In this document: piece after piece, positions 11,175-60,258 of the stretch
Layout of the letters: each line of letters begins with the position of its first letter
How positions within the stretch are numbered: position 1 is the stretch's first letter
Assembly: GCA_000165345.1 (NCBI GenBank)
Contig: CM000434.1
Span: forward strand, 1,216,001 to 1,280,000
Direction of reading: 5' to 3'
Length of the DNA: 64,000 nt
Program-made: the position numbers and the translations under genes
Notes under the pieces: generated by a model
The model's input: the letters and a program-made list of their open reading frames with translations, nothing else
The model's database searches: none
What the model was told of the DNA's origin: nothing

Positions 11175-12217
11175 ATGACAGATTTTGTGACAAAAAAACT
11201 AGAAGTAGAAAATAAAGCTTCTAAAAGTGAAAATAGTGAGGAAATCGATTTAAATAATAAGGAAACATTTGTAAATCAAGTAGTTAGTGATGAAAATACA
11301 ATTTGTACAAGAGGAACAGAATCTTCGATTTTCACAATCTTGAGGAATTCAAGGAGAGAACATTTCTTTGATGCTCGTATAAAGTTATATAAAGAGAAGC
11401 TTAGTTTAATGGAGAAAGAAGGTAAGATGAAGTTCAGTAAGGGGATAAACTCTCGAAAAAGTATGCAAAGATGTTGCAAAATGAATAAATATCAAATATA
11501 CCGTATATTGATTACTATTTTGGGAGTTTTTTTTATGTTATTAGCATTGTTTGGTGTATCATTCTTATTGTTGCTTCCAAAGATTGCTGAAATTCAAATA
11601 AGGAACTCAAAAATGGATATTCAAGAAATCAATGTTTTTCAGATTAGTAGGCAGAATGGAGAAACTTCATTTGAAGTGGATTCAATATTGGCTATAGATA
11701 AAGTATCAAAGTACAAGACTGAGTTTATTCATTCATTAATGCAGATAAGCTATGGAATAAAAGGAGAAGAAACTAAATCTTTGGGTGAATTATATATTTC
11801 ACAGATGTCTGTGAATGAGGATGGAATTTTAAAAGCAAGAGGAAGATTTACAATAAGGAATAATGAATCACTTAATGAATTGATTAATTACATGACATCA
11901 AGTTTGAATGTTAATAACAAGGATGAAGCTATAGAGAAGAATATCACATTTTATGGGAAAGGTTTAATGTCTCTAAGGATCTTTGGAATATTACTAAATA
12001 ACATAAATGTGGATAGAGAACTGAGCTATTCTTCAGTTTATGGATTGAATGGAACGTCTGAAAGAAGTTCTATTAATGGAAAGGAGGTTAGAGACAGAGT
12101 TTCTTCTGATAATGCCCCACTTTCGAACAAAAATGGATTAAAAATTCATAATATTTGGTTAAACTCTCACAAAATGGGTGGTATGAGATTGAATCTAGAG
12201 CTTGAACTTGATTTTCA
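11175..12217 (+). CDS. Hypothetical single-pass membrane protein, 5' part only. The ORF runs into the N-masked region, so its 3' end is unknown.
   Basis: ATG start. TM is ILITILGVFFMLLALFGVSFLLLLP. The ORF is open until masking begins at about 12218. The X-containing continuation in the track is not interpretable. Confidence 0.45.
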
Positions 12218-15180
12218 NANANNNANNGNTNANAATNGNANANNANNNNNNTNNAANNAGNTNTTNNNNNNNNNNNCNNNANNTNGNNNATANNGNNNNC
12301 TNANNNNANNNNTNNNAATANNNANAATNNNANNTNNNTANTGCANANTCNNNTNGTNNNATGNAANNNTNCNNNTTCANNTNNANNANNTTNNNNNTAN
12401 TNNNTNNGNTTTATTNNNNGNGNANNNNANNANNNNNNATNNNNNNNNNNNNCNATAANNANNNTNTTNNAAAANNNGNNANNTCCNANNNNNTTNNNNN
12501 ANNNAAANNNNNNNNNTNNNGANNNGNNNNCNNNNANNNNNNNNNNNNNTNATNNNNNANTGAANNNNNNANTTNTNNNTNNTTTAAGNNGTNNNNTNNN
12601 ANNNNNATNNNNNNNNNTNNNTNNNNNNNNNNNNNNNNNNNNTNTCNNTNNNNNNNTCTNTCTNNNNTNNNTNNNTNTNTNNNNNTNTNNNNNTNTNTNC
12701 NNNNCTCNGATNANNNNNNNNNTTACTNNCTNNNANNCNTAAANTNNNNTTANATTNANNNNNTGNNCNNGATTANNNNNNNNANAANNNTAANNNCNAN
12801 NNNNNNTANNNCNNNNNNNACTNNNNNAANNNACCNGANNNTNNNNANNNNNNNTTNNNTNNNAAAGNNNNAAAAAAANNNNNNNCTTNNTCNNTNANAA
12901 ANNTNNNNCNNANCNCNNNNNAANNNTGNTNCNNNANNNNCNNNNNCGNNTNNTNNNTNATNANNNNNNTNNNTNNNNNNNNANNGNTANNNNNAATNNA
13001 NNNNNNNTNNTGNNNNNNATNTANAAAANNNTNNNNANTTNTNTCANNANNTNNNNNTNNNNANNNNTNNNNANTNNNNGNTNTNNATNNANNNAANNAN
13101 NNTNTNNNNNTCANNNNANNNNNNNNTNTNNNGGANNATNNNNNNNANNNAAANANNNNCNNNNATAANGNNNNNCNAAANNNTACANNNNTNGNNNNTT
13201 NNANANTNNCTNNNNTTANTTANTNNNNANTNCNANAANTTANNTNATTNNNANNNNNATANANNNNNCNNTNACAAGNATNNTNNGNNNNNCTNNNTNN
13301 AATNNAANANTNANACNANNNNNNNNNNTNNNNANACNNNNNNAANNNCCAANTNAANNNNNATNNANNNTNNNNNATNNGNANATGATGANNNTAANNN
13401 NNANGANNTANNNNANNNNNNNTNNNANNTNANNNNNNNNNNANTNCNNANNNNTNTNNTNNNNNNNNTNNNNCANNTTNTANNTCNNNTNNCANNNNNN
13501 NNNANNANNNTTNNGANNNGNNNNNAAANNNTNNTTATNNNTTNCTNNNNNNNNNNNANCCNNANTNCTANAGANANNCNNNNNNANACNATNNGNANNN
13601 NATTNNANCTNNATGNNNGNNNACNNNNNNNTNNTNNNGNANTNTNNNNNNNNNNTNNTNTNNNANTNANNNNNNNNNGNANANNNTTNATNNNTNNAAN
13701 ANNANATNNNNNNNTNNNTTANTNNNANNAANTANANNANNTNTTGANNNANNTNCNNANNNNNTANANTNATNNTNTNANNNANTNTNANNNNNTTCNT
13801 TNTNANNNNNGNTAAATNNNNNATNNNNGNNNNANNANNTNNNNTNGNNNTTANNNNNANTGAANNNNNAANNNATTNNTNTNTNNANTNNTNNAATTAT
13901 NCTNAATNNTTATNNGAANANNNATNNNANNTTTTGGANANNNAATNNAAAAGNNNACNNCNNATNNNNNANNANNNNNNANCNNNTAATAANAANATAA
14001 NNNNANNANNNATNNNNNNNTANATTTAANNNNTNNNNNNNTNNNNNTANNTNNNNCTATTNTTNAACTNNTTTTNNCNNNNNNNANTNNNNNNAATANT
14101 TNTNTCANTNNTAAANNNNNGNNNANNNANTNNNATNTNANNNNAGNCNANNNNNNNNNNANTCNAATNNCNNNTNTNATNATNANNNNNNANNTGAAAN
14201 TNGNNTNNATNNTGANANANAANAAANANNAAANANAANNATGNNNNNNNNAATNNNANNNNANANAAATTANANTNNATNNNNNANTNNNNNTTNTTNN
14301 AGNNNAATTNATNNNNNANNNNNANTNNTGANNNANANTNANNANTNNTNNNNNGNNNTANGNTNTANGTNTNANTNNCNATTATNNNNNNNTNNNNTNN
14401 NNNANNNNNTNNNNGNNNNNTGNTGNCNTGNNATNNTANNNNTNNNATNATNTNAANNNANTNNNNNANNNNNTNTNNNANNNNNTNATANNANNNNACN
14501 AANNNNNNNNNNNNNNNNNNNTNNNANNNNNNTNNTCNNANNNCATNNNANNNANGNAAAGANTNNANANTNNNNTNNNNNANNNAANNTNACNNNATTN
14601 NANNNTNNNNNTNTANTNNNNAAANNAATNNANTNGNTNNNANNNTTTNNNNTNNANNNNNNTNNNNNTAANTNAATNANTNNANNANNNNNTNNNCNGN
14701 NNNTNAANNNNNNNNTNNNTANNNGGNGNNANNNNNTNNNNNNNANNNTNNNNNNNNNATNNNNTNNNANNNNCANNANANNNNNCNNATNNNTNNATNN
14801 NNGNNNNNTNATNNNTNNNNNAANTNNNNNANTANANNNAATGTANTNATNNNNNNNNANTTGNANGANNGNNTANATNNNTNNNANANNNNNNNNNNNN
14901 NNTTNATANNTNCTNNNANANNNNTTGATATACAGTNGNNTATNAGNTNTCAATANNCNANANTATGTTGAAANTATGNAANTTNNTNTAANNANGGNTN
15001 NACTGNNTNTTTNNNTTGGAAAAGATGTCNANANGANCNNNTANTCAGCNNTNANNNAGANTCNNAGANANGCNTATNNTTCNGCNNACNAAGTNGANTG
15101 TATCGNAGTCAGNNTGTNATGNTNTTGNTCCNNNTGNAGTTCANGNNNTCNNATGANGNANTNGATCNNGAANTAGANNA
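12218..15180. other. N-masked or ambiguous block. About 70-80% of positions are n, with masking density falling off toward the 3' edge. Contents are unknown.
   Basis: Direct observation. Every ORF with X residues here comes from n being translated as X. Confidence 0.95.
12643..12706. repeat. Probable polypyrimidine (CT-rich) low-complexity tract inside the masked block.
   Basis: Every unmasked base in this roughly 60-nt stretch is t or c (tntc..tctntct..tntntnt..ctc). Confidence 0.3.
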
Positions 15181-19925: not shown

Positions 19926-20250
19926 TGAGCAGAAACATATTGTAAATGTATTTATTATATTGGAATTAAAGAGGTTTATAGTTCGTGAGAAGAAGTAGGT
20001 ATTGTGTACATTTTTTTTATTTATTTCTATTATTTTAAGAGAAACAAATTATCGGTAAAAGTTGAGTTAAATTTACGATTTAAATACCCAGAATTTTGTG
20101 TTACAAATAAATTCCAAGTTGCAATTTTAATTCAAATTTATAAGTAAAGACACGTAATTCCGAGGGGGAAGTGGTAACCTTTTTGGCGCCAATTGTGGGG
20201 AAATAATGGGCATGCAGGGAAAAAAAAAATGTGTGTAAGTATGAGGAATA

Positions 20251-40368: not shown

Positions 40369-43300
40369 TTAATATTTGAAGGGTGAGAATGAAACGGCGC
40401 AAATTGAGTAGATTTCATAAGGATTGAATGTTTCAGAAAGAACTGATTTCAAGTGCTCAATGCAGTATTTAATTGTGTTCTTCTGAATAGAAAGCACGAA
40501 ACCCTGAGTTTCAAAAGACTTGTCATTTTCTAAAATGCTGATCGAAATTTGGTGGACAACATAGGCAGCAGTTTCAATGCTGAAAATGTTCAATTTATCA
40601 ATAGAATCATTTCTGCCCTTAATAGGATTGCTTCCTGAGTATAAGCCAGAGAAATTATACTGACTAACCGAATCCCCTCCCTCCAATTTCTTTAATAAAT
40701 TTCTAAAGCTATCATGAAAAACTCCAAATAATCTTATTGACTCAAGCATTCTAAGACCCTGAATTTTGACATTTTTACCATAATAAGTGATTTCAACTCC
40801 CTCAATTATAAGCCTATCAATTTCTCTCTCAAGTTTGTTCTTAACTTGGTGTCTTAAACTATATTCTTTGTTGGAATCATTTAATGATATGTTTACAGAA
40901 TCTAAGGGATCTCCATTAAGATGGTCTTCGTATATAAAGTTATAAATGGTTTTGTTAATATAATCTTTTATAGGTTTATCATGTAAACCTGTCTTGGAAC
41001 ATTGTATAGCTGTGTTACAGAGAGAAGAAATAAGCTTGGCATTTATTGGAGTTAAGTTATGCTTATGGAGAGAAAGTCCAAAATTAGTTTTTGACGAAGC
41101 ATCTTCCTCATATATGGTAGCTTCTGCATTTGTATCCAGAATGTTTGAGAGTAAAGCAGCAATTTTACACTTCTCGCCAAAGTTATCTTTAATATTTCTA
41201 TATCCAACTGTAAGTACATATAAGTTTATCCCAAAATGAATTGAAGTTTCAAAAGATGGAGTTCCTTCAGAAAAGTTTGAGAATGCATTAACCAATTCGT
41301 ATATGCAATGAAGTTGTGAAATAGCACCCTGAGGGATACTAAAGTAATTTACCAAATAGTTAATAAAAAGTGCATTATTTCTGAGTTGAGAATTCAACTC
41401 TTTATTTGGAGTAGAAAAGGTGAATTCACATATCTCCTTAACTTTTGGAACTCCCAGATCTTTGTTTCCAATCGAATTCAAATATTCTAATGTTGTGGAT
41501 ACGCAGCTCTCAACTAGATATGGATAATGTTCAAGTAAAGTTTCACGAGAGAAAAAATATCTTAGGCCATAAACCTCATCTGAAACTGGTTTAAAATTGC
41601 TCATATCCTTGGAAGAATCCTTTGAGTTAATGAATTCATATCTCAATGAATTTCCTATGAAAGCAGAACTGCCTACATCCGGAATATTCTCATAATTTGC
41701 GTATATTCGGGTAAATATTTGAACGATACCTTCGCTTGTGAGCTCACCAAAATAATTTGATTTTTGAAGGCTTCTAATATACTTTGAAATGAAGAATGGG
41801 AAAAACTTTGATCCATCTCCAAGTGTATAACCTACAGTAAGATTAGACCCAATCGAGCTTGCCATCGAAGCTTTTACATTGTTAAAAAGATCGGATAATG
41901 AATTATACCAATCCTCTTCTGTATTAGACTTCTTGGAGTATGTCTTGATCGCAAATAAGATGCTTTTTTCAAAGAAATCATCTTCGAGAACCAAAGAGAC
42001 ATATCTACAAAAGGATTCTTTATTTTTTTGTATCTGAGAGTTTGTAAAAACTAATTTAAATTGGAAATTCTCAATACAAATGTTATATTCTGATTTATAA
42101 CTCTCATTAATCGTACTATATCTGCTTACAAAAGAAAATAATGGTAATAATCTTGCCTGGACCCCGAGAATAGTATAAGAACTTGCTGCATACGCATAGA
42201 TTCTTTTAATCTTATTAATAGAAAACCCATAACTATCTGATAAAACATTCACAAGCTTTAATAAATAGGGAATATCTGAGAATGGAGTTGGGTATGAATT
42301 ATCAATTACATTCTCGCATAATGAAGATAATGTAAAGAATACTTTATTCAATTCCGGATACCTCTTGACAATATCTAAAGCACAATCTGATGGAACAAAG
42401 CTGTTCGCCACAATTGGAGAAAGCTCTGAAATGGAAGGAACCAAATCATCTACACTTTTCTCAGAAATAAGTTCCTTTGGAAGTGTTAATGGCCTTTTAT
42501 TTCTACTAACTTCTGAAATACTTGTTTGATCTGTAAGTAGTAGGCCTAATCTAACTAAGGAAGAGTACAACTTTTGTACTTTAATTACAACTGTTGGATC
42601 ATGTATTTTGCCAGCTTTATTTATTACGGAAACTGGGGGTAATAGCTTACTACTTGTATTTAAATCTTCTTTTGAATCTTTATTTTCCTTATTTTTTTCT
42701 ACAATTTTTGTTATGAACTTTACCCTTGGGAAAAATTGATTATAGTATTCACCATTTTGGGAGGAAATTATTGAAACGAAAAGAGTTGTTAAATCCTCCT
42801 CTGAAAGTGATGATTTTGAATTAAAGCATCCAAAAATTGTACGACAAAGTTCCGAAGAATCCCTCTTGATATCAATAACTATTCTCTCTTTTGGAATAAA
42901 AGTATTTTCTGCTAAATTGATATATCTCGGAATATTTTTTATACAATAAGAGTAAAAGTTCTCTTTGTTGCTTACGCTTTGTTGATCTAATAGTATTGTT
43001 AACTCTGTAGAATGTTCAAATCTTGGAAACATTCCTGTGTAAGAAGCTGAGAGAAAAAATACACATTGTGATTTTGAAATGAGTTCCAATGGAAGTTCCA
43101 AATACTCACTTAAATACATCAAATATTGAAAAGAAATTGATGTTGGAGCAAATGGAACTAAGTATTGATTAATTGCTTGTTCAGAAGATGAACAAAGTAG
43201 TTTACTTAGATGATTCCTCTTGCTTATATTCAATTGTGTTGAAAATAGAGGGAAAGCTTTTAAATGAAGGCGTAATAAGTCTTCACATTTCATATATTCT

Positions 43301-44277
43301 GAATTCTTTTCATCTAAATATTCAACTATTTGCTGCCATGAATCTAATTGGCTTTGATCTTTTATTGAAAAAGCATCTGCTGATTTATTTGAAAAAAATG
43401 TATTCAAGATTGAATCCAGTTTGCAAATTAATCTATATAATCTCAACAAATTGACATTCAAAGACTTTCCCTGGAATCTCCTTCCAATATTACTAATGAA
43501 CTCAAGTCTACTTGGCAAATCATGATTACTTAACTTTTCTGAATTAATTGACAAAGTTTCTCTCAAATTTACTATCGAATTTAGTATAGCCGAATCATCG
43601 ACACAAGATTGTATCTGAGAGCAAACTTGAGATATGAAACTTGATGGAGAGTTATGCCTTCCTGATGATGAGAGACTATTCATATATTGTCTGCAAACTT
43701 TTCTAAAACTTTCATCTCTTAAATTTGGTAATTGGAAAGTCATAGCAGCAACCTTATGTATATCTGGAAGAGATGATGAAATTCCAAGCTGATTTCTTAC
43801 ACTCCTATAAGTATATATAATGCAAGATCCCAATAATATATTTGATAGTGGTAATTCAATATTATTAACAGAAAATTCAATAAATCTGCTCACATAATAC
43901 TCTTCCATCAAAAATTGTTGAGATGTCGAAGCTTCAACACTTCTATTTATTGGCTTTGAAATATTCTGAGGTCTATGAAGGCCCAATGCCAATGGTACAT
44001 TAATTGCTTCAATAGCAGCTGTTTTACTTTGTTTAAAGTGAAATAAATATTTTATCGGGCCAGGTGGCAAAAGTCTGTACATTGAACTAACGTTTATTTT
44101 CTTAGACCCATCTCTATAAAGCTCCAAATACAATGAATCTTCTTCTTTCACACAATTACCATGTGGCATTAAACCACTATTATGTTCCGGCTCGTTTGCA
44201 TGTTGATTAGCATATGTTATAGCTAATTTAATAAAAATAGCTAAAATGCCAAGTAATTTTGTTGAATTAAACTTCAT
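40369..44277 (-). CDS. Large secreted hypothetical protein of 1302 aa with an N-terminal signal peptide. No recognisable domain.
   Basis: ATG start. Signal peptide MKFNSTKLLGILAIFIKLAITYANQ. A 1302-codon stop-free ORF. Confidence 0.6.
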   Translation of the reverse strand: MKFNSTKLLGILAIFIKLAITYANQHANEPEHNSGLMPHGNCVKEEDSLYLELYRDGSKKINVSSMYRLLPPGPIKYLFHFKQSKTAAIEAINVPLALGLHRPQNISKPINRSVEASTSQQFLMEEYYVSRFIEFSVNNIELPLSNILLGSCIIYTYRSVRNQLGISSSLPDIHKVAAMTFQLPNLRDESFRKVCRQYMNSLSSSGRHNSPSSFISQVCSQIQSCVDDSAILNSIVNLRETLSINSEKLSNHDLPSRLEFISNIGRRFQGKSLNVNLLRLYRLICKLDSILNTFFSNKSADAFSIKDQSQLDSWQQIVEYLDEKNSEYMKCEDLLRLHLKAFPLFSTQLNISKRNHLSKLLCSSSEQAINQYLVPFAPTSISFQYLMYLSEYLELPLELISKSQCVFFLSASYTGMFPRFEHSTELTILLDQQSVSNKENFYSYCIKNIPRYINLAENTFIPKERIVIDIKRDSSELCRTIFGCFNSKSSLSEEDLTTLFVSIISSQNGEYYNQFFPRVKFITKIVEKNKENKDSKEDLNTSSKLLPPVSVINKAGKIHDPTVVIKVQKLYSSLVRLGLLLTDQTSISEVSRNKRPLTLPKELISEKSVDDLVPSISELSPIVANSFVPSDCALDIVKRYPELNKVFFTLSSLCENVIDNSYPTPFSDIPYLLKLVNVLSDSYGFSINKIKRIYAYAASSYTILGVQARLLPLFSFVSRYSTINESYKSEYNICIENFQFKLVFTNSQIQKNKESFCRYVSLVLEDDFFEKSILFAIKTYSKKSNTEEDWYNSLSDLFNNVKASMASSIGSNLTVGYTLGDGSKFFPFFISKYIRSLQKSNYFGELTSEGIVQIFTRIYANYENIPDVGSSAFIGNSLRYEFINSKDSSKDMSNFKPVSDEVYGLRYFFSRETLLEHYPYLVESCVSTTLEYLNSIGNKDLGVPKVKEICEFTFSTPNKELNSQLRNNALFINYLVNYFSIPQGAISQLHCIYELVNAFSNFSEGTPSFETSIHFGINLYVLTVGYRNIKDNFGEKCKIAALLSNILDTNAEATIYEEDASSKTNFGLSLHKHNLTPINAKLISSLCNTAIQCSKTGLHDKPIKDYINKTIYNFIYEDHLNGDPLDSVNISLNDSNKEYSLRHQVKNKLEREIDRLIIEGVEITYYGKNVKIQGLRMLESIRLFGVFHDSFRNLLKKLEGGDSVSQYNFSGLYSGSNPIKGRNDSIDKLNIFSIETAAYVVHQISISILENDKSFETQGFVLSIQKNTIKYCIEHLKSVLSETFNPYEIYSICAVSFSPFKY

Positions 44278-44607: not shown

Positions 44608-47418
44608 TCACTTTGGAGGATACTCTATTCCCTCCTCCCGTAGAGCTTGGATGAGCTGATTCAGCTGAGATGGTTCTCCATTATATTTAATTCTCCACTG
44701 TATTGCCAAGTATCTAGATTTTTCAAAACCGTAACTTTTTACACTGAAGTTCTTTGTCATAGAAACACCATCTATATCATATTGAGTAACCCAACGATGT
44801 ATTGTGGGGTTATACGAGACTCCATCAATATGTGGCCCAATGAAGAATCTTTTTCGACCATCAGGGCTTGATTTGTCTTCAATATCTATATACATTGAGT
44901 CACTATATGTAGTTAAATCACAACCATGCATGGATACTGAACTTCTGGAAGATGGGGTTCCCAATTTTGAAGGAGAGTCCAAATTCCCTAAAATATTTCC
45001 TGAAAAATCCAATTCCGCTCCAGAATTGGTCTTTAATGGACTGCTTTCACTTGTCTTTGGGTCAATTTCCTCCTTTAATCCTTGGATTAATTTTTCTTGT
45101 CTGGTTTCTTGATCCTCTGTTTCATTTGTTAAGCTTCCAAGTACTTTTACTGGCTTTTCATTATCTTCTCTTTTCTCAAGATCTTCCATTTCTACGTCTT
45201 TTGATTTAGCTGTATCAGTAACTTCACTCTTAGTTCCAGTTAAAGTTTGTAAATCCTCTCCTTTTTGGCCAATTGAATCAGAGTTGGAATGCATAACGGG
45301 TAAGGGGGATTTTAAGTCTGATCTACTGCAAGCCAAAAGTGATTCCCTAAGTATCTGTTCTTCCTTACCTCCGTGGTTTTGTAAAACTGATTTATATCTA
45401 TTCAGTAAAGAATTTACCTGTTCATTTTCCTGATCAGTTGGAGTTGTCACTAAAAAATCTCCCTTTGATGGAATACAAAGATAATATCTTTCTGATCCAT
45501 CCTTTAACTGTCCCTTATGTATTGTTAAATCCTCAAATGAGACATCTTGCAGAACCCCATCCTCATATGCAGGGAATCCCTGGATTACAGTTTGTAAGAA
45601 TTCACTTAATTTTTCAACACCCTTTGTGCTTGAATACATACTTTCTCTATATTCAATAGCGAGCTGACGAGATCCCTCAAATCCATAAGCTCCAATACTG
45701 AAATACTTATAACGCTTCCTACCATCCTGCCCAACATAGCCAGTTACCCATCTATTTTGGATTTTGTCATAACGTATTCCTTCTATCACTGGTCCAAAAT
45801 AGTACTTCTTTCCATGATATACCAAAAACTCCTCCCCAGAAGCAGATTTCCTTGATTCTGATCTGCCTCCTGTATTGTGCTCAGAAGAAAAGCTTTGTGT
45901 CCCATTAGTTGATTGGCCTGTTCCTGGTTCAGCTTTTGAACCTGAAAGATTTGTTGCAATCCTTATTCTAAATGATGAAGAAGACGTTGGCTGTCCTTCT
46001 CCTGAGACATTTAATACACTCCCATCAGCCCCCTGAGAATCCCTTCTTTTTGGTGTAAATACAGCTCCTTTTGAAGCTGAAGCTCTCGAGGAAGTCTTTT
46101 TAACTGGAGTAAACGATGTATCATCAGCCAAACCTCCTGCTTTTTCGATTGCAAGATGTTTAGCCTTTTCCGCACCAAATTCCTCAACAGAAAAGACATT
46201 CTCTTGTTCCAGAGTATTTACCAAGTTCTTACAGACCCAGGAATCCTTTTCTTGGTCATAAAACACCTCATAATCAGGATTTTGCAAATTTATAGTATCT
46301 ATAGCCGAATTTCTTGTATTATATGCAGAAGGAGATGATCTACCTGAACGGCCTGTGCCTTCTATAGATCTTCTACTTCTTTTGTTAGTTCTAGTAGCTT
46401 GTACTGGAGTGCCAGTTTGAATCTTATTATTGATATTAGCAAGTTGTTCTCTTCTATATTGAATGGCCATTTCTCTTGCTGTATCATATCCATATTGTTT
46501 AACATTAAAAATTCGACTCCTTCTAATGCCATTTTCCGTCCAAACTGCAACCCAACGATCTCTATTTTTCTCATAAGTAACACCAACTTCATTTCCACCT
46601 TTTGATGGTGAATTATTTGAAATACAAGGCTTCCCTCCACTGCTCAAACTCGTAGTTTTCTCAGATCCTGAACCACGTTCTTCATTATGTCTACCGCTTT
46701 GTATAAAATCTCCTCCACGTCTCACTTCCATAGTGACATATGTCTGATAAACCAATGGAAGTACCAATTCCCCAGATAAATTAGCCGGTTTCCACTCGAT
46801 TTCTGGCTTACCAATTTTTCCTTCAAGGCTTTCTGATATTTGAGATACTGATTCTAATTCGCAGTCTGCACCAGTAAACATTCCATCTAACCACTCCCTA
46901 TAAGAGTCTAGGTGAGAAATTGCACGAATACAAACTTGAGAATCACAATTCTCAATATCTAAAGGGTAACCCTGCGAATCTTCAGTAACATTACTAGACC
47001 TCATTTTACGAATCATATCACTAGACATTTTTTGACTATTATCAGGCTTCATCTTCTCGTTAATCTTTAATCCAATAGATTCTATTATTTTTAGATAAGG
47101 ACTAAACTCTTCCTTGCTGATAGCTCCGTATATTTGAGCTATATGAAACATTAAATTATCCCCATATTCTCCCCATAAAGGATATAAATTTGAAATATAT
47201 CTTAAAAAGAAGTCAATACAAATTAATTCGTAGTCTAATTCCAGTTCTGATTGTTCTAGTTTTGTACATTCATCTTTTTGACTAACCACAATATTTTGCC
47301 CAGTTTCAAGAGATGAATTTGTATTATCAGTATTGCATTCGGTACTTAGAACCATATTTGTCTCTTTTGCAGATTCTTCTGCAATCATCTTTGTATCCAT
47401 TGGCTCTTGAATTTCCAT
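44608..47418 (-). CDS. ApiAP2 transcription factor with four AP2 DNA-binding domains.
   Basis: The track start is TTG (47424); the first ATG is 47418 (MEIQEPMDTKM). The four AP2 domains are: VTYEKNRDRWVAVWTENGIRRSRIFNVKQYGYDTAREMAIQYR; VFYDQEKDSWVCKNL...FSVEEFGAEKAKHLAIE; GIRYDKIQNRWVTGYVGQDGRKRYKYFSIGAYGFEGSRQLAIEYR; GVSYNPTIHRWVTQYDIDGVSMTKNFSVKSYGFEKSRYLAIQWR. Confidence 0.8.
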   Translation of the reverse strand: MEIQEPMDTKMIAEESAKETNMVLSTECNTDNTNSSLETGQNIVVSQKDECTKLEQSELELDYELICIDFFLRYISNLYPLWGEYGDNLMFHIAQIYGAISKEEFSPYLKIIESIGLKINEKMKPDNSQKMSSDMIRKMRSSNVTEDSQGYPLDIENCDSQVCIRAISHLDSYREWLDGMFTGADCELESVSQISESLEGKIGKPEIEWKPANLSGELVLPLVYQTYVTMEVRRGGDFIQSGRHNEERGSGSEKTTSLSSGGKPCISNNSPSKGGNEVGVTYEKNRDRWVAVWTENGIRRSRIFNVKQYGYDTAREMAIQYRREQLANINNKIQTGTPVQATRTNKRSRRSIEGTGRSGRSSPSAYNTRNSAIDTINLQNPDYEVFYDQEKDSWVCKNLVNTLEQENVFSVEEFGAEKAKHLAIEKAGGLADDTSFTPVKKTSSRASASKGAVFTPKRRDSQGADGSVLNVSGEGQPTSSSSFRIRIATNLSGSKAEPGTGQSTNGTQSFSSEHNTGGRSESRKSASGEEFLVYHGKKYYFGPVIEGIRYDKIQNRWVTGYVGQDGRKRYKYFSIGAYGFEGSRQLAIEYRESMYSSTKGVEKLSEFLQTVIQGFPAYEDGVLQDVSFEDLTIHKGQLKDGSERYYLCIPSKGDFLVTTPTDQENEQVNSLLNRYKSVLQNHGGKEEQILRESLLACSRSDLKSPLPVMHSNSDSIGQKGEDLQTLTGTKSEVTDTAKSKDVEMEDLEKREDNEKPVKVLGSLTNETEDQETRQEKLIQGLKEEIDPKTSESSPLKTNSGAELDFSGNILGNLDSPSKLGTPSSRSSVSMHGCDLTTYSDSMYIDIEDKSSPDGRKRFFIGPHIDGVSYNPTIHRWVTQYDIDGVSMTKNFSVKSYGFEKSRYLAIQWRIKYNGEPSQLNQLIQALREEGIEYPPK

Positions 47419-47742
47419 TTCCAAGAATTAACTTAATTGTGTAACTTCTATAAATTATTAGTTTTTTTACTTTTTTTTTTATTAACTAATTAATCTCTTT
47501 AACTCCTGGACCTCGTCTAGAGTGTCTGATTCTGATCTCAGACTCTTCTTTCTTCTTCGCCTCAACCTTGCAACCGTTTCTCAAATTCTTGATTTTTTCA
47601 TAAACTTTTTACAATTTCCTGTCTCATTTATTTACCCTCTTTTTCTAACTTTTTTCTCAATAGTTTGCCTCCTAATACTTGCTTTGGCTGACGCCTAAAC
47701 GCATTCAAACCTTTCCTCCCCCTCATCCAATATTTTCACCCT

Positions 47743-48215: not shown

Positions 48216-51200
48216 TTATCTAAACCAGTTTCTAATCATCCATTTATTGGATCTAAGATTGTTTATGTCCAAAGGTTCTTCTATAAAAATGGACCAAATT
48301 CTGGGTATGAGGTTTCTCCAAATAGCCTGGTTGCCTTTTCTGAATCTTATATGGTCAGCACACCATAAATGAAGAAGAGGAATATTAAAGTATGAAGTTC
48401 CCCCCGTTGCTCTTTGAGATATATCAGAAACAAGCTTTCTAAAGAGTTGTTTAGCAATGGAACAAGGAATATTAGGTTCTTCTTTCTCATGTATAGTAGT
48501 CTTTAAAGGAGCCCATCCCTCTAATGTTAAAATATCCGCAACAAGAGGCTTATTCCCCTCGAAGTCTATAAGTGGAATATCAGCAATTTTAAATATTTCC
48601 TCTAAATCTGGTTGAAATATTTTAAATCTTCTCAACTGATTCTTATCACAAACTAGATGGTATTTTGGTGGTTTCTTTTTTGTATTAATGGCAGTAAAAC
48701 CTGAAGATCGTTCAATAGGATAATTTGGATCAACTTTTAGGGATAATTTGAGATCTGGGACTGAGTTGTTAAAACATTCATCGAGATCAGTATACCATCT
48801 ACTGTCAGTGGGACTATAAGGTTCCCCTATAATTAGTTCTTCAAGAATTTTCCTTGCTAGATCTCTTCTGTGGTTTATAATGGAGGTTCTAAGCAAAATT
48901 TTGTTTGATTTAAAGATCGATTCTTCTTGTTGAATTTTTGTATAGCTAACACTTAGTCTTTTAAACTCCGTATTTACTGCAATTACGCGATGAACTTTTC
49001 GAACTATTGGTCTATCTGAAATGTCAAATACATCTATAGCTTTTGCACAGTGTCCAGCATGTTCAACTCCGAGATCAATGACCTTTTGTAGTTGGTCTTC
49101 TCTCTTCTTTTTTAAATAATCGTATTCTTTAGTATTCGAAATTTCGCCACTACTATCTGTTTGAATCCTGGCAAACTCTATTTTGTCCTTGATAATCCTC
49201 ATTTCATGCTCAATATCTGTCAAATCCTCCAAGGCTTCGTGAATTCTTCTAATTGAGACTCCAATCAAGAGCTGAAGTTTAGCTTCTAATGGAGATATAT
49301 TTTGCATGATCATATCAACATCAAATAGAGACATATTATTTAAAATGGCTTTTGGTTCAATAATAATCTTAGTAAGTCTGTGTTCAACTCTTGCAATCCA
49401 ACGTTCAAGCTTCTCGTCAGTAATCTCGTTATCATCTTCAAAGTTAAAGTATTCCTCAGGAATTCCAAGCAAGAACTCATTAATAGTTTCGTCTACAGAA
49501 GCCACAATCAAGTTATATAGTAACTCTAGCTCATCCATATCCAAAATCTTTTGATTATTTACAAATACTGAGGCTAATGCTAGCTTAATAGAGCTTTTAT
49601 AGTCATAACCATTTTTTACTTGAGATATTGCCAAACATGCATCTGGAAGCTTAACTTTGCTCTTTCCTAGAACACTATGAGAGATTCCAACCACTAATAA
49701 GGCAAGCCTAAATGCAGATCTATGAAGTAGTGGACAGAATAATGAAAAATGATCCATTTCATCATATGGTTTATCTTCAACAAGAGAATGAATCCAATCT
49801 TTTTTGGCTAACTCAGAAAAAGATTTCAAATCCGAAATACCATATGGCAAATTTGAGGCTGAATATATATCCGTGTTATCAGATTCAATATATTCCTTCA
49901 AAGCTCCAATATGCTTTTCCATATACTTAACAAATTGAATTTGCATGTAGAAACGACGTTTTAGGCTTTGGGGCACATTTCCTCTTTGAAATTGAATATC
50001 CTGCACAAACCTTTGAGTTTCTTTAAATGAAGTAATTAAACTTCTATAAGTTGAATATAACGTTTGAAGAGCTTGCTGGTTTGTAAGATTGACCAGTTCC
50101 ATTTTAGATCCTAATGAGATATTACTTTCTTCCTCTTCAGCTCCGTTTAATACCCCATCTTTGAACCATCTTTTGCCTATTTTTCCAGATTTATTTCTGT
50201 TATAATAAATCAGGAATCTGTCAAAAAGCTGCCTCCTGTCAACAACTACATTAGTGGATGGATAGTTTGTAAATAATATTTGTCTAACATCGAGCTCATC
50301 TAAATGACATCTGTTATCAATAGCAAGAGCAACCAAAATAGCTTCGTTTACCTCCACCTTCTTTTTAAAGTTGGTATTTATTCCGTCAATTGGGAATATT
50401 TGCCCCTTATTTAATATCTCAGAGAGAAAAGGGTGCTTCTTTGTTCCATACTCTGCAATTTTTTGGCAAAATTTTTCAGCTTTATCATACTCTATATGTC
50501 CTCTTAATGCTGATCTTAAGGACTTAGCACAATCTTCCAATGAGCCCTCTTTTAAAGATAACACAACCGTACAAGCTCTTGTTCTACTTATTTTGTATCC
50601 TTCTTCCAACATGATTACTACAAGCGCATTTGCTATAGAGATCTCTTCTTTAGATAACTTTGCACATGCTTCACCTCCCAATTCATCCATTCCCGTCTTA
50701 ACAGCAGATTCAACTTTCTCTAAGATATTACTAACATCGTTAGGATGCGCTTCATGAACCAAATCTTTGACTTCCGGATCTTCTTTGGCTATTTTCAATA
50801 CCTCCTTACAAATTTCTAAGCTATTATCTTTAATTTTCTCATTTTCTTTAATTGTTAGTTCCAATGCAACCGAACAACCTGAAAAGTATCCATCTCTTAA
50901 GTTATATACTATATAGCATGCATCTAACATAGACATCCCTATAGTTTTAAGATAATTAGTGTCATAGTTCTTACTCCCATTTTTTAGGTTTGATTACTCT
51001 GAGTTCTCAAACCAGGATTTTCCCTAAAGATCACAAACTTACCATTATTAGAGAATTTTTTTGAAGCAATAATAAATAGATTGGAAAGCTTTAGCTGGTG
51101 TGGAGTTAATACTGAACAATAATCCCTAAACAATATATTATTCACGAATCATAGATTAAGTACCCAAAACTTACATAATCAACGTTCCAGACAAATCATC

Positions 51201-51335
51201 TCTTATATTTCTTCCTTCAACTTTATATTTTTTACCAAAAATGGGCCTCCAGTATCTTGCTGCTTCTATTTCTGATTGCCATATTCCCAAAACCAAACAA
51301 AGCAAAAATCCTAAAGATGTTTTGAGCAACTTCAT
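48216..51335 (-). CDS. Three-exon gene encoding a large hypothetical protein of about 989 aa. Two short upstream exons supply an N-terminal signal peptide.
   Basis: The main ORF 48216..50936 (MSMLDACY...) has an in-frame upstream stop. Upstream on the same strand, ATG 51335 opens exon 1 (51335..51175: MKLLKTSLGFLLCLVLGIWQSEIEAA..., a signal peptide), which ends at an ATGTAAGT donor. Intron 1 is 49 nt (to TTTAG). Exon 2 is 51125..51043. Intron 2 is 104 nt (GTAAGT...CTATAG). Exon 3 starts at 50938, and both junctions restore the main frame. Confidence 0.5.
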
Positions 51336-51502
51336 TTTATCACTAATCTTGGTTTCTAAACATGCATTCCCGTATAAAAATCAATACTTTCCTAATTCAA
51401 TTCCTTCTATATATAAATAAATGAAAAGATAGTATTTATATTTCCTTTTATTTTAATAATTGCCCCATATTTTGACATGCAAAACCCTAATTCTTTTTAG
51501 AT

Positions 51503-51525
51503 CATTTGGCGCGCAAGTCATGCAT
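51503..51525. promoter_or_regulatory. E2F-like atttggcgcgcaagtcatgcattt in the promoter region between the 48216 and 52000 genes.
   Basis: Read directly. GGCGCGC core plus CATGCA. Confidence 0.3.
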
Positions 51526-51999
51526 TTATTTTTCTAATTTTATTTACTAGAGACGAATGATAGAAATAATTGTTATTTCTAATGTCTGCATTGATAATGA
51601 AAATCTAAGTGTAATTAATTGCTATTTGTAAACAACCAATCAGCCCCATTAGATTAACCTATACGAATGCTTTTAAAAGCGTAGTAACAATAATTAGGCT
51701 TAAATATGCCTCCAAATTGTTATCACTCGGAAAATAAGAGCTAATGAATAATTTTTTTTTGACAAGTAGAATTGATCCTCATTTTTTTCAGAAATAGTTT
51801 TGTTTTCATTTTGAAATTACATTAATCTTTGAATTAAGTAGAAGCTTGAAAACTTTTTTTTTGAAGAGTTTAAGTATTGTATTCAATACTGTAAATATAT
51901 ATTAATATAGATAAACAATTAAGTAGCTAGCTACTTTGACGACTCAACAAGTTAAATAGCTGCTAACTAGGAGATACATAAAAGGAATAAGATTTAGTC

Positions 52000-53697
52000 A
52001 TGAAGAGCATATTTCCCTTTTTTTCAATTTTTTTACCATTATTAAAGCATTCATTTGGATATCAAGCTAACCAGCCAAATGTTTCAGAGTACAACTCTGA
52101 GCAAAATCTCTTAGCAGCTCTTTGCTGGTCTCTACCCTTCAAATTTATTAAATGCGATATCGATTTTGAGGAAAACGTATTAGAACATTTAAAACTTGAA
52201 CTAATCCCAAGATACAAAGTTTCTTCAACTGACGAAATTGTTTATAATATTAGAATGCAGCCAGTAACAAACGGATACTTAACAAATGCAATTCTAGCAG
52301 TAAGACCAGTTTATGGGCTGATTATTTCAAATGAAGCTGGAAATCCTGTTCTTCAAATTCCACATCAACTCAAGCATTCATCAACGGCAAAGTTTGGATT
52401 ACCGCATCAAGCCAAAAACGTTTTCTCATCTGTGAATTGTGTTCTTATGTACTCCAATATTGGAGAAGGTTTTTACTATATTCACCCTGGAAAGAGTGAA
52501 CATAAGTCAATTCCAAGATCCGTACCAGAAAACATAATGTTAAAAGCCTCTACGAAGAAAACAAGTACTAGAGAAATGTTTTATATGACTTTGTTATCAA
52601 ACCAACAGTTCCCCACAAAACCTACAGCTACCTATGGTGTTGGGACGGATTTTATGATACCTTCAGTAGTTTGTTTTGGGACTAATGAAAATCTAAGCCA
52701 ACAACTTCATGAAAGTAATTCATATCTGGGAGGAATTTTGATCCAAGAACGAATTATGGGACCTTCTCTAAGAGATGTTATCAAATTTTTCAAAAGTAGT
52801 GCGCTTTTGAAGTGGCTAAAAAATTCAAGAACTGATGATTTTAATTATAAAGCTAGAATTTCTCTCCGATTAGAAGCTCAGTATTCCTTGGCTCATTCTC
52901 TAATTGCTGCAATTTTAACTTTACAGCATCACTCAGTTGCAGGTAGGGTTTTACACTGTGATCTAAATACCAGAAGTATCTATCTTGATCGTATAGTTTG
53001 GAGCTGGTCTTCTAGGAAGATTGAAGATAATTTGAATGCAATAACACAACTGTCCCCATCTAACTTCAAATTTATTAACTTTGGGTATATGAAATCAACT
53101 CTCGAGGTATCAGAGGAGAATTTAGGCTGCTCTCAAACTGATAATGATTTAGTTAGAGTACAAGAATTTATTAAGATTTTATTTTCAGAGCAAAGCAATA
53201 GATCAGAGTTCCCTGAAAGTGGAAGCATAAGTAGTGGTATGATGACAATGAGCACTGGATTTAAAATGTGGTGGAATGAAGTAGTTAATTCTGTTGGAGC
53301 AGAGTCCACTAATCAAGAAGTCAATGAGCAAGAAGTTTTGCAAGTTGAAAATATTCTAAGGACTATTTATACAGATAATTCAGTTATATCAAATCTTGAT
53401 AGAACAGCCAAATTTTCTGGTATTGTTGCAGGCTTGAAGGCAATTCACGCCTCCATCAGCAAGGCATTTAGATATCTTTATGAGCAAGGATATGGTAGAA
53501 CTAAGAAAAGGGTAATTCTTGGTTGGTCAAGCAAAGACCTTGAGCCTGAGCCTGCCACCGAAATTAGTGGTACTGTCAGAAGAATCCTTAGTGGCAAGAA
53601 AATTGAAAATTCTTCTAATATGAATTCTTCTGGTGTAGATCCTTCAGGTTCATCTGATTTGGAGCTTTCTGCTGAATCTATTGGAATCTCTAGCTAG
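52000..53697 (+). CDS. Secreted hypothetical protein of 565 aa with a degenerate kinase-like catalytic-loop signature (LHCDLNTRSIYLD ... INFGYMKS). It may be a secretory pseudokinase.
   Basis: ATG start. Signal peptide MKSIFPFFSIFLPLLKHSFG. HCDLNTRS resembles HRDLKPxN and NFG resembles DFG, but the spacing and the rest of the domain are divergent. Confidence 0.5.
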   Translation: MKSIFPFFSIFLPLLKHSFGYQANQPNVSEYNSEQNLLAALCWSLPFKFIKCDIDFEENVLEHLKLELIPRYKVSSTDEIVYNIRMQPVTNGYLTNAILAVRPVYGLIISNEAGNPVLQIPHQLKHSSTAKFGLPHQAKNVFSSVNCVLMYSNIGEGFYYIHPGKSEHKSIPRSVPENIMLKASTKKTSTREMFYMTLLSNQQFPTKPTATYGVGTDFMIPSVVCFGTNENLSQQLHESNSYLGGILIQERIMGPSLRDVIKFFKSSALLKWLKNSRTDDFNYKARISLRLEAQYSLAHSLIAAILTLQHHSVAGRVLHCDLNTRSIYLDRIVWSWSSRKIEDNLNAITQLSPSNFKFINFGYMKSTLEVSEENLGCSQTDNDLVRVQEFIKILFSEQSNRSEFPESGSISSGMMTMSTGFKMWWNEVVNSVGAESTNQEVNEQEVLQVENILRTIYTDNSVISNLDRTAKFSGIVAGLKAIHASISKAFRYLYEQGYGRTKKRVILGWSSKDLEPEPATEISGTVRRILSGKKIENSSNMNSSGVDPSGSSDLELSAESIGISS

Positions 53698-54170: not shown

Positions 54171-56495
54171 CTAGCTTGCAATCTTATAGTTCCTTAATGT
54201 AAATGCAGTCAGGAAGTATCCAAGAATTCTGAAGGCGAGTCCCAAGCAAATAGCAACTATAATGTTAAGCCAAATATCGGTTGTCCAGAGATTAAATTGA
54301 TCTAGGAAGAAGTCTGTAGTAACTTTTGAGAATCTTTCTCCTGGAATGAATACTGATAATATCATACCGGTATAAGTATATCTTACAGTGGATATCCATC
54401 CTAACCATCTGATCCAAACAGGAATTTGATCAAATGTAACAAAGTAGCCTGCAAGTAAAGCAAAAACTAAACTGAATAGTGGGAAAATCTGGAATACAGT
54501 ATTTGTACTCGTACTAAACGAGGAAAGTACATATGAGAATGAGTATGAAAGAAATACTCCAGCTTGAGTAGAAGCAGTCCAAAGTCCAAACTGGTCAGCC
54601 AAAGAAGTTTTGAGATTCTGATCATAAACTCCAGTCATGAAGTAAACGATTGTTGTATATACCAATGTCTGAATATGTTGAACTGGGAAGTCTGCAACCA
54701 TCCTCGAAAAATAGTAAGAAATAGGGGTATACATCTTAGAATAGGTTTCTTTGTTCATTACAAAACGCTCATCAACGGTTACAACAAGCCCCTTAATAGA
54801 AAAGAATGAGATACTTGTTGATACAAAGAAGATCAAACCAATGATATTTCTTGCATTTTGAGCAGTATCAAAATCGTTTTCTCCAGCTCTTGGGAGAGAA
54901 AAGAAGACTCCTCCCATGATAATGGCCATAATAGTGTTAACAAGTAGTAATCCAACTGTTACATTTGGATCTCTCCAAGTATTGAGAAGTATTCTCTTTG
55001 TAAGATATTTAACCTCTCTACAGAAACGTATAGGACCTGGGATTGGTGATAACCTTGCAATTTTTTGACAAATTGTCTGAGTTGGAAGGATTTTCATATT
55101 TGCAGAATCAATATTTCCATAATTCTCAAATAAGATTTGAGGATTACTTGTATCAACGCATCTTAAGTGATTATCGATGCCTTTCTTAACATTTTCTCCA
55201 TATACTGATTGTTCATAAATCTTATGGAACTCATCCAAAGATTCAATAGAGGGAACTTCCAGTCCAAACAGTTTCATTGAAATATCATCTCTTGATACTG
55301 ATTTTTCGAACTCATAAAGTGGTTCTTCTCCATCCAGATTTCGTTCAGCTAATTCAATTTCCTTTATAGTTGCATCCTTGGGTACATATATGGAGGCTGA
55401 AATTACTTTCTTATGTACTAACTCAACAAGAGACGTAGCATCTATAATGAAATCTGCTGGATTATAGTTATCAGGGAAGGGTGTAACAACATCATTAAAG
55501 AAGGTAACAACGTCCATTGGAGATCCTTGTCCTAAAACAAATCCTCTACTCAAGAGAGTAATTTTATCAAACAAGGCAAAAGTCTGCGATCTTGGGGTAT
55601 GAATAGAACAAATCACAATAATTCCAGTGGTATGGGCGAGAGACGAGAGATATGATAGTAAATCATGAGCTCTAGCAGCATCCAAACCTGTTGTTGGTTC
55701 ATCCAAAAATAATATTGGAGGATTCTGAATCAATTCCAAGGCAATACTAAGTCTTTTCATCTCACCACCAGAAATTCCTTTCTTTGAAATTCCTCCAACG
55801 TATGTATCTTGTACATGTCTGAGTCCCATAATATCAAGAATTTCAATAATCTTTTCCTCACGATCCTTCTTAGAATAATGTGGAAGTCTTAGACCAGCTA
55901 CAATGTCCATTGTCTCTTTAATTGTTAGATAAGGAAGTAAGTAATCATCTTGTACCACCATTCTAGTCAAATACCCTAAATCTATATCAGTAAATCCATT
56001 AATAGCCACGGAACCCTTAATATTATATTCTCTCCCTTTGAGTCTTCCAGAAAGAGCATTCAGTAATGTTGACTTTCCTGATCCAGAAGGGCCCATAATT
56101 CCAATAAGTTGTCCTGGAGAAGCCATAAAATTCACGCTCTTTAGGATTGGAACCACCTTTTTACGGAAAAACTTATCACGTTTGGTGAGTTCAACTGTCA
56201 AGTTTTTTGCTACCAATGTTACTTGTTTTGAAACATTCATTCCCAAATTTATATTGATTGACATGTCCATTGAATGGTCTGTAACTGAGCACCTAACAGC
56301 TGCAGCACTTGATCCACCTTTAGCGTCATAAGAAGATTGATCTCCACCACCTTTGCTACTATTTAAGTCCAAGTTATTTCCTCCTACTGTTAATCCATTG
56401 TCCTTAATCTCAACGGAAGACTTTTTGCTGGGGTTTTTGGGGTCGTCAAAGCTAAATTTAGCTACAACCAAATTTACTACCAAAAAAGTTAACAA
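54171..56495 (-). CDS. ABCG (White-family) half-transporter: N-terminal ABC ATPase followed by a 6-TM domain. The start is uncertain.
   Basis: Walker A GPSGSGKSTLLNALSGR. Signature plus Walker B ISGGEMKRLSIALELIQNPPILFLDEPTTGLD. C-terminal ABC2-type membrane domain with about 6 hydrophobic helices. The track start is TTG (56495) and the first in-frame ATG is 56270, but about 83 stop-free codons lie upstream of that ATG. Confidence 0.85.
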   Translation of the reverse strand: MLTFLVVNLVVAKFSFDDPKNPSKKSSVEIKDNGLTVGGNNLDLNSSKGGGDQSSYDAKGGSSAAAVRCSVTDHSMDMSININLGMNVSKQVTLVAKNLTVELTKRDKFFRKKVVPILKSVNFMASPGQLIGIMGPSGSGKSTLLNALSGRLKGREYNIKGSVAINGFTDIDLGYLTRMVVQDDYLLPYLTIKETMDIVAGLRLPHYSKKDREEKIIEILDIMGLRHVQDTYVGGISKKGISGGEMKRLSIALELIQNPPILFLDEPTTGLDAARAHDLLSYLSSLAHTTGIIVICSIHTPRSQTFALFDKITLLSRGFVLGQGSPMDVVTFFNDVVTPFPDNYNPADFIIDATSLVELVHKKVISASIYVPKDATIKEIELAERNLDGEEPLYEFEKSVSRDDISMKLFGLEVPSIESLDEFHKIYEQSVYGENVKKGIDNHLRCVDTSNPQILFENYGNIDSANMKILPTQTICQKIARLSPIPGPIRFCREVKYLTKRILLNTWRDPNVTVGLLLVNTIMAIIMGGVFFSLPRAGENDFDTAQNARNIIGLIFFVSTSISFFSIKGLVVTVDERFVMNKETYSKMYTPISYYFSRMVADFPVQHIQTLVYTTIVYFMTGVYDQNLKTSLADQFGLWTASTQAGVFLSYSFSYVLSSFSTSTNTVFQIFPLFSLVFALLAGYFVTFDQIPVWIRWLGWISTVRYTYTGMILSVFIPGERFSKVTTDFFLDQFNLWTTDIWLNIIVAICLGLAFRILGYFLTAFTLRNYKIAS

Positions 56496-58835: not shown

Positions 58836-60078
58836 ATGGGTAAGTTTGTTTGGCTTTCATAAATAAGACGAATAACCAAACTAATTAATTTAATTTAAAG
58901 ATCCACAATTCAGGTTTAATCTTAGGCCAGTGATTCAGAATAGAAATAATTCAGGTACTCCAAAAGTATTTATTAGAAGTACAAGTACAGGAAATAATGT
59001 TCAAGGTATTTCTAAAACACCAATAGTTCCTTACAGACAAATGTATGGAACCAATTTTAATGACCTCCAAGGAGTATATTCAATGGTTTCTCCCCTTCAA
59101 AGTTTTAGAACACCTCGATTGGAGAATCAAAACCACAATAATTTTTTTCCTGAAAATAAAAATTACCTACAAATTAATACTGAGAGACTAATTCATTCAA
59201 GTAAAAATTTTATAGATGATTCTAAAATACTAACATATAGGTCAGGATCTTTTATACAAGCTAATTCTCAAGGGTACAAACCAAATGAAACACTCCAAAG
59301 CACAAACTATTCAGACAACACAACTGTTTCTGAAAGTCAACTTTCTTCAAACCAATTTTTTGAATCAGAGAATGATAGTTTCATTTCGCAGAATGTAAAA
59401 CCAAGCAAGAATTTAGTCAATAATGCTACTAATACCTTAGATAACAAATCTGAAAATGAATTAAAACAACTAATTGATGACCCAAAAGATCTTTCTTCCA
59501 CAAAAATTGAAAATAAAACAGATAATCGTATAGAACTAGATTTGAAAATCCCAAAAAATATTTCATTGGAAGAAATCTGTGAAACTGAACAATTTGACTA
59601 TTTTCCTCAACTTATTAATGAAGTAAATGAAAAAATAGATATGGAAGAAATAGAATATAATACTGAAGATATAAATCATAACTTTGACAAGGAGTCAATT
59701 ATATCCTCAAGCGATACTCAAGGATGTATGGAAATATGTATCACTCCTCCCTTATCATCAGAACTAATTACATCTAACAATTTTTATTTCCCAGAAGATA
59801 ACAAAGAAGAGAGTCAGAATGGTTCAATTTTAAGAACAAATAAAGATTTTTGTGAAGAATTTACAGATATAGAAACTCATAAAAATGATATTCTGGAGAA
59901 TCAGAATATTTTAAGAGAGAATGGAAAAAGAAAATTCAGATTTTCATCGCTTTGTCCTAAACTGCTCAACTGTCTATTTCCATGGATACGTTCTGAACAA
60001 TATTTTGAAGATCACGACCAACCAATTTTCTATATCACATCAAATAACGAAGAATCTCAAAAACTAACAAATAACTAG
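58836..60078 (+). CDS. Hypothetical protein. The proposed model has a 4-nt first micro-exon (ATGG), a 61-nt intron, and a second exon 58901..60078.
   Basis: The track ORF begins at GTG 58930, but its frame is open back to 58894 with no ATG before residue 38. At 58836 the sequence ATGG|GTAAGT ... TTTAAAG|AT fits a canonical donor and acceptor. Phase 1 joins into the open frame as M-D-P-Q-F-R... The alternative start is the internal ATG 59041. Confidence 0.4.
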
Positions 60079-60258
60079 AAGATATGTACTTAGTCTCCAT
60101 GTTATTTTTTTTGTTGTCTTAAAATTCTTTTTTCTTTTAATTTATATTACATGTAACTCTATCCTATTTGGCGGTAAATTCTTTTTTAATTTTGACATGT
60201 TAGTTTTAATCCAAAAATTTCAAAAAAAACTTCAATAAAAATATATATATGGAAAACA

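Follow-up and report, generated by a model that had tools for sequence, protein, structure and literature searches.

The 5' end of Cryptosporidium parvum cgd6_5330: two short introns, as in current curated annotation, and a predicted signal peptide

Introduction

Where does the protein encoded by cgd6_5330 begin? The stretch of DNA analyzed here (the window; 64,000 nucleotides [nt] of assembly GCA_000165345.1, contig CM000434.1, positions 1,216,001 to 1,280,000) comes from chromosome 6 of Cryptosporidium parvum and has a G+C content of 30.5%. On its minus strand, at positions 48216-50936, lies an open reading frame (ORF) of 906 amino acids (aa) that has an exact match in GenBank record BX526834.1, also C. 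parvum chromosome 6. Exact-sequence look-up identified this ORF with CAD98344.1, EAK90102.1, and XP_627852.1, a "hypothetical protein" and the 2003/2004 model of cgd6_5330; the locus tags of later records end in 6005330 or 6g5330, and the gene is therefore cgd6_5330. In the literature searched, no main text names it, and its sole mention is in a supplementary table, where it is paired with CHUDEA6_5330 at a ratio of nonsynonymous to synonymous substitution rates (dN/dS) of 0.157 (PMC4637869).

The original prediction for this locus, made from the letters of the DNA, held that the ORF is not the whole coding sequence and that two unannotated upstream exons add a signal peptide to it. Our analysis finds that the three-exon model of cgd6_5330 is correct but already known, in that it duplicates public annotation. 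We put at roughly 90% the probability that positions 51335-50938 are the true 5' end of the gene, with two introns, and that its product is a 988-aa precursor carrying a cleavable signal peptide into the endoplasmic reticulum (ER).

Results

Two introns place the old start codon at residue 83

The coding sequence runs through three exons (Table 1). Exon 1, exon 2, and the two nucleotides that open exon 3 contribute 161 + 83 + 2 = 246 nt, or 82 added codons in frame with the ORF, and the start methionine of the old model becomes residue 83 (M83) of the new one. The spliced coding sequence is 2967 nt long, has no internal stop, and encodes 988 aa followed by the stop codon. Both introns fit the spliceosomal GT-AG type, with a GTAAGT donor and a YAG acceptor, and at 49 and 104 nt they are within the size range for introns of C. 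parvum, for which the mean has been given as 84-99 nt (PMC4637869).

All coordinates of the original prediction (the ATG at 51335, the exons including the one of 83 nt, and the two introns) proved correct to the nucleotide. Its description of a stop "just upstream" of the ORF is a fair one, an in-frame TAA lying at 50996-50994, 57 nt (19 sense codons) before the ATG of the old model. The reading frame is kept across both junctions, as had been claimed: the spliced product is, residue for residue, QOY41418.1 (CPATCC_003124/CPATCC_0016940, C. parvum IOWA-ATCC; Baptista et al. 2022) and WRK33139.1 (cpbgf_6005330, C. parvum BGF), whose start codon, two introns, and stop are the same, with no difference. 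In the IOWA-ATCC annotation, all genes were curated manually and all introns are stated to be supported by transcriptome sequencing (RNA-seq) (PMC8744675).

The same two intron positions and a hydrophobic N terminus recur in orthologues whose annotation was made separately from that of C. parvum. Two 988-aa models have been deposited for C. meleagridis (POM83095.1 and KAK9172364.1), and in the 1000-aa C. andersoni protein OII71073.1 (cand_019120), the same junctions read ...TLVV/DYCTILTP... and ...SNTG/MSLLDAC, the slash marking the join. The old C. parvum model (CAD98344.1/EAK90102.1/XP_627852.1) is identical in exon 3 from M83 on and lacks exons 1 and 2; with them it loses the predicted signal peptide and C57, the first of the conserved cysteines. 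The word "unannotated" is accordingly apt where the 2003/2004 records are concerned, as it is for several records from C. hominis, chipmunk genotype I, and C. muris; it does not apply to C. parvum IOWA-ATCC, C. parvum BGF, or C. meleagridis, nor, in analogous form, to C. andersoni.

Table 1. Features of the cgd6_5330 5' end, of its alternative intron-2 models, and of the upstream region (window coordinates)
Feature	Coordinates	Strand	Details
Start codon ATG	51335-51333	-	AAAATG context
Exon 1	51175..51335	-	161 nt; phase-2 end, ...GATTAT then GTAAGT; encodes MKLLKTSLGFLLCLVLGIWQSEIEAARYWRPIFGKKYKVEGRNIRDDLSGTLI(M)
Predicted cleavable signal peptide, residues 1-25	51261..51335	-	n-region MKLLK; h-region TSLGFLLCLVLGIW; c-region QSEIEA; cleavage between A25 and A26
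Intron 1	51126..51174	-	49 nt; GTAAGT...GTTTAG; read from sequence
Exon 2	51043..51125	-	83 nt; encodes (M)DYCSVLTPHQLKLSNLFIIASKKFSNN(G)
Intron 2	50939..51042	-	104 nt; GTAAGT...CTATAG; read from sequence
Exon 3	48216..50938	-	2723 nt including stop; GG, then ATG of the old ORF at 50936
Junction-spanning peptides			of the spliced 988-aa product: ...DDLSGTLIMDYCSVLTPHQLK and FSNNGMSMLDACY...
Peptide YWRPIFGK			within residues 26-82 of the 988-aa product
Intron 2, 1001-aa model	donor 51038, acceptor 50974		donor GTTTGT; acceptor GGGAG; 65-nt intron; adds NKNYDTNYLKTIG
Intron 2, 1003-aa model (C. tyzzeri type)	donor 50997		read-through to GTAATC donor; 59-nt intron; adds KFVIFRENPGLRTQR
Conserved block, putative promoter element	51456..51533		listed on the minus strand; 120-200 nt upstream of exon-1 ATG; near-invariant in 5 species
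E2F-like motif TTTGGCGCGC	51505-51514	+	only copy in window, 0 expected
Two TGCATG motifs	51519-51524 and 51476-51481		within the conserved block

The splice path is beyond chance

The 457 nt that precede the ORF, made up of the 397-nt stretch that begins at the ATG and 60 nt of 5' flank, contain two GTAAGT hexamers, against 0.146 expected (probability of at least two, 0.005). When the sequence was shuffled with its dinucleotides preserved, 1 of 1000 shuffles gave a stop-free, in-frame path from an ATG to the ORF through GTAAGT introns that added at least 40 codons. The two-intron splice path is beyond chance. Over both strands of the whole window, long same-strand ORFs have none of the 20 GTAAGT hexamers in their bodies; only one lies within an ORF of that kind, 11 nt from its end, and several others lie 16-240 nt upstream of same-strand ORF heads; the hexamer is therefore a good intron marker in this genome.

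The three-exon structure is conserved across Cryptosporidium

We compared the locus in eight genomes: C. parvum, C. meleagridis (L003), chipmunk genotype I (L004), C. tyzzeri (L005), C. hominis (L006), C. serpentis (L007), and the Logan contigs L008 and L009, the last with a G+C content of 54%. The same three-exon 5' end is present in all eight, with donors of the form GT[AG]AGT and acceptors TAG or CAG. Exon 2 is 83 nt long in every one of them, and exon 1 is 161, 164, or 182 nt long, always 2 modulo 3. The intron lengths drift free of frame (49, 50, 55, or 59 nt for intron 1 and 58, 74, 104, 105, or 128 nt for intron 2, with a 1-nt indel in intron 2 of C. meleagridis). Retention of either intron leads to a premature in-frame stop in each of the eight species, intron 1 carrying a TAA within its own donor.

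The pattern of divergence agrees with this division of the DNA. Between chipmunk genotype I and C. parvum, the introns and the upstream region diverge by 22-25%, compared with 17% for exon 1 and 7% for exon 2. The gastric clade, at 49-50% overall identity, differs from C. parvum in that its exon 1 is 21 nt longer and encodes another signal peptide sequence (MQALVIYHLIILYLSVNLIYG); the exon-2 peptide DYC[ST][VI]LTPxQxKL..LFII.SK..S..G is kept down to C. serpentis (50% overall identity). In comparisons with the distant species, the synonymous sites of exon 2 are nearly saturated (14/19.8 and 17/18.7) at a dN of 0.11-0.22, which indicates that this exon is under purifying selection; dN/dS for exon 1 is 0.19-0.51.

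These comparisons bear on the alternative that the protein starts at M83 (MSMLDACY) and is a cytosolic protein of 906 aa, with the upstream DNA serving as an intron-containing 5' untranslated region (UTR) or as a separate gene for the 54-aa ORF of exon 1. Models of 906 or 911 aa have indeed been deposited for C. parvum Iowa II, several C. hominis isolates, chipmunk genotype I, and C. muris, and gene callers run on raw contigs call the 54-aa ORF as a gene of its own. We nonetheless consider a start at M83 extremely improbable. The 906/911-aa records are ORF-only predictions, and an exon 2 of fixed length, kept in sequence to species of 50% identity with a dN/dS of about 0.1-0.2 at saturated dS, is not expected of a UTR. 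The length differences in exon 1 are multiples of 3, and the exon-2 motif C..L.P...KL recurs in the paralogue KAL7066833.1, just after its signal peptide. Moreover, the exon-2 helix is predicted in a structure model to pack with the first helices of exon 3, and the degree of cysteine conservation described below would be unusual in a cytosolic protein.

By the terms of the original prediction, homologues that clearly start at the MSMLDACY methionine would have counted against it. Records that do so exist, in the form of the ORF-only models, but in the DNA of C. hominis (L006) and chipmunk genotype I (L004) the two upstream exons are intact, as are the four splice sites, and the 906-aa chipmunk genotype I record misses exons that are present in its own DNA. 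A different fault affects the C. serpentis record KAL7066838.1 (GCA_051169045.1, 972 aa), which starts at an internal ATG 28 codons too late; an in-frame ATG 84 nt upstream (L007:2417-2500) adds MQVLVIYHLIILFLFVNLIYGTSKPGFN and brings the protein to 1000 aa, matching the C. andersoni model.

The new N terminus has the anatomy of a signal peptide

With the two exons in place, the protein begins MKLLKTSLGFLLCLVLGIWQSEIEA/ARYW, the slash marking the predicted cleavage site. The n-region, with its two lysines, is kept in seven of the eight species, C. serpentis having MQVLVIYH instead. The h-region is a 13-residue hydrophobic core; over 11-residue windows, the Kyte-Doolittle mean is highest at residues 8-18 (2.93). 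The cleavage site is predicted from the -3/-1 rule, which the c-region appears by eye to fit both in the intestinal clade (I/V-E-A before A) and in the gastric clade (I-Y-G before T). The signal-peptide pattern occurs in all eight species, the gastric clade sequence being different and equally hydrophobic.

Residues 1-19 form the only 19-residue window of the 988 aa with a Kyte-Doolittle mean above 1.6 (1.66), so the protein would be soluble after cleavage. The rest of the protein has no transmembrane segment, and neither a KDEL/HDEL nor a glycosylphosphatidylinositol (GPI) signal is present. Two further observations, on the cysteines and on the relatives of the protein, are in keeping with passage through the secretory pathway. 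Across the orthologues and the 21-22%-identical paralogues, 11 of 17 cysteines are invariant, versus ~8% of all residues. The paralogues (C. serpentis KAL7066833.1, C. felis KAF7455791.1, and a copy at 60256 in the window) also have hydrophobic, signal-like N termini.

Points weighing against the secretory precursor

Several observations weigh against a 988-aa secretory precursor. Neither spliced-junction sequence had an exact match in metagenome contigs (an uninformative result, Cryptosporidium cDNA being unlikely there), and no Logan-derived spliced product is on record. Alternative models of intron 2 have been deposited (WKS78649.1, KAL5368413.1, KAL3127887.1, and TRY51345.1), both of the segments that these would add are stop-free in five close relatives, and minor alternative splicing is possible. 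C. parvum has I at position -3 of the predicted cleavage site, where most species have V, an acceptable residue but not an ideal one; cleavage itself is a prediction; and the secretory reading as a whole rests on computation. The shift from cytosolic to secretory localization announced in the original prediction is well supported in that form, by the conserved n-, h-, and c-region anatomy, the cysteines, and the N termini of the paralogues, and it stands as a prediction rather than a demonstration.

The deposited alternatives keep both upstream exons and move the boundaries of intron 2, giving proteins of 1001 or 1003 aa (Table 1). It is very unlikely that either is the right structure. Both skip a perfect GTAAGT donor, and the acceptor of the 1001-aa model is purine-rich. 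The extra segments evolve like noncoding DNA: between C. parvum and chipmunk genotype I, the read-through segment shows seven nonsynonymous changes and one synonymous change over 16 codons. In C. serpentis (58 nt) and L009 (74 nt), intron 2 is too short to contain the extra segments, and reading on from exon 2 runs into a stop 6-7 codons later. In the models deposited for C. andersoni and C. serpentis, MSLLDAC follows immediately on ...SNTG, and the curated annotation with its stated RNA-seq support has the 988-aa junction. In this comparison of sequences, no junction other than that of the 988-aa model is conserved throughout, and the 1001- and 1003-aa models deposited for C. parvum-like isolates, one C. 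hominis assembly, and C. tyzzeri probably have wrong intron-2 boundaries. The readings that we rejected comprise the 54-aa ORF as a gene of its own, an intron-containing 5' UTR, and the splice variants of 1001 and 1003 aa.

We also think it unlikely that the hydrophobic segment at the N terminus stays uncleaved as a signal anchor, which would make cgd6_5330 a type II membrane protein. Such a reading would suit two automatically assigned names, "Integral membrane protein" for the C. meleagridis orthologue (UniRef) and "transmembrane protein" for the C. felis paralogue, and would agree with the predicted status of cleavage. At about 13 residues, however, the hydrophobic core (SLGFLLCLVLGIW) falls short of the length of a membrane span, and after it comes a c-region with conserved small residues, [VI]EA before A or, in the gastric clade, ..YG before TS.

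A predicted helical protein and its family in Cryptosporidium

A HMMER search of 1.84 billion representatives gave six matches, of which the four long ones were to Cryptosporidium records and the two short ones were exon-1 ORFs on syntenic Logan contigs. A homologous-protein search with a 173-aa N-terminal query gave no match, the best Pfam match (E = 0.074) was below the cut-off, and a profile search of the PDB found nothing significant (best E, 0.29). In these searches, the family appears to be found only in Cryptosporidium.

The AlphaFold2 model, built on a nine-sequence alignment, is all-helical and of low confidence (predicted local distance difference test [pLDDT], 53.5; predicted template modeling score [pTM], 0.28). 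Its best-predicted stretch, residues 61-140 (pLDDT of about 75-88), spans the boundary between exons 2 and 3 and includes the exon-2 helix (residues 62-75, pLDDT of about 80). The placement of M83 inside a folded domain, as the 988-aa model would have it, fits this part of the prediction. Foldseek searches of the PDB with the model gave no match at E <= 0.001; the matches that did appear (to the cap-binding complex, importin, and others) were discarded as meaningless, with TM scores of about 0.1. Together, the model and the hydropathy profile suggest a mature protein that would be soluble, mostly alpha-helical, and cysteine-containing.

A larger paralogue, represented among the HMMER matches, lies about 10 kb from cgd6_5330 on the same chromosome arm. 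It begins MNPINNWRVWVLIYFYIHYLLLNTIDC at 60256 on the plus strand and runs to 64000 and past the end of the window, and it shares 62% identity with C. felis KAF7455791.1 and 36% with C. serpentis KAL7066833.1, each about 1410 aa long. It resembles cgd6_5330 in having a homologous C-terminal domain and parts of the middle, the conserved cysteines, and a hydrophobic N terminus; it differs in being about 420 residues longer and only 21-22% identical. Its signal-like N terminus is encoded where the long ORF begins and requires no 5' introns.

One further sequence touches the family. P0016 (305 aa) matches cgd6_5330 exon 3 over its first 85 residues, and the remainder is proline/arginine-rich and GC-rich-looking; contig chimerism or a frameshift in the assembly, rather than biology, is the probable explanation.

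Upstream region and neighboring genes

Measured from the exon-1 ATG, the intergenic region that cgd6_5330 shares with the divergent gene at 52000-53697 (565 aa) is 664 nt long, compared with a gap of 1063 nt under the old model; the mean intergenic region in C. parvum is about 550-590 nt (PMC4637869). The divergent gene likewise begins with a signal-like N terminus. Between the two genes lies the conserved block listed in Table 1, and the intergenic DNA around it diverges by 25% in chipmunk genotype I. Among the upstream motifs of C. parvum, the E2F-like and GCATGC-type ones show the strongest over-representation (PMC3734150). The block and the size of the gap lend soft support to the idea that transcription starts upstream of exon 1, and the putative promoter may serve either of the divergent genes, cgd6_5330 or the gene at 52000.

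Elsewhere in the window, GTAAGT hexamers at 20235 (+), 39422 (-), 38088 (-), 56523 (-), and 58840 (+) lie 16-90 nt before the heads of long same-strand ORFs, with one 11 nt before an ORF end. Two of the ORFs near such sites, 54171-56495 and 58930-60078, have no ATG at their heads. These sites likely mark further short introns or missing 5' exons of the adjoining genes. Pairs of adjacent or overlapping same-strand ORFs occur at 11175-12458 and 12202-13815 (both +) and at 40369-44277 and 44608-47424 (both -), and the second ORF of each pair begins with TTG. The AP2-domain gene adjoining cgd6_5330 has conflicting gene models, with 2060 aa in BX526834.1 and 930-937 aa in the records of other species; introns may be involved. 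A scan of the whole window against Rfam gave no match.

Discussion

In the three-exon model, transcription would begin upstream of 51335, probably driven by the E2F-like/TGCATG block at 51456-51533. Two short spliceosomal GT-AG introns are then removed, a step that the sequence and the cross-species comparison show and for which the published annotation asserts RNA-seq support. Translation from the ATG at 51335 gives the 988-aa precursor, in agreement with the identical deposited models, and the old start, M83, would lie inside a conserved helical domain. By its sequence anatomy, the segment of residues 1-25 would act as a cleavable Sec-type signal peptide for co-translational entry into the ER, where the conserved cysteines would be able to form disulfides.

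One could go further and suppose that splicing of the two 5' introns is regulated and acts as a stage-specific switch for a secreted protein. Under such a scheme, retention of intron 1 may yield only a 54-aa micropeptide bearing the signal peptide, and alternative intron-2 sites may yield the 1001- and 1003-aa isoforms. The sole basis for this idea is the open alternative frames in close relatives, which are compatible with chance over 13-16 codons, and we regard a switch of this kind as a far-fetched prospect.

The three-exon model with its 988-aa product is already public in the IOWA-ATCC annotation, and biological understanding is therefore unchanged. Our best guess, from the features of the sequence, is that the cgd6_5330 product would be a secreted or luminal structural or interaction protein, for which a secretory organelle, the parasitophorous vacuole, the oocyst wall, or the surface may be the destination. 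The consequence of the old models is a practical one. Those who use the 906-aa cgd6_5330 record, or the 906/911-aa records of C. hominis, chipmunk genotype I, and C. muris, miss the signal peptide, and the protein is then wrongly dropped from lists of candidate secreted proteins.

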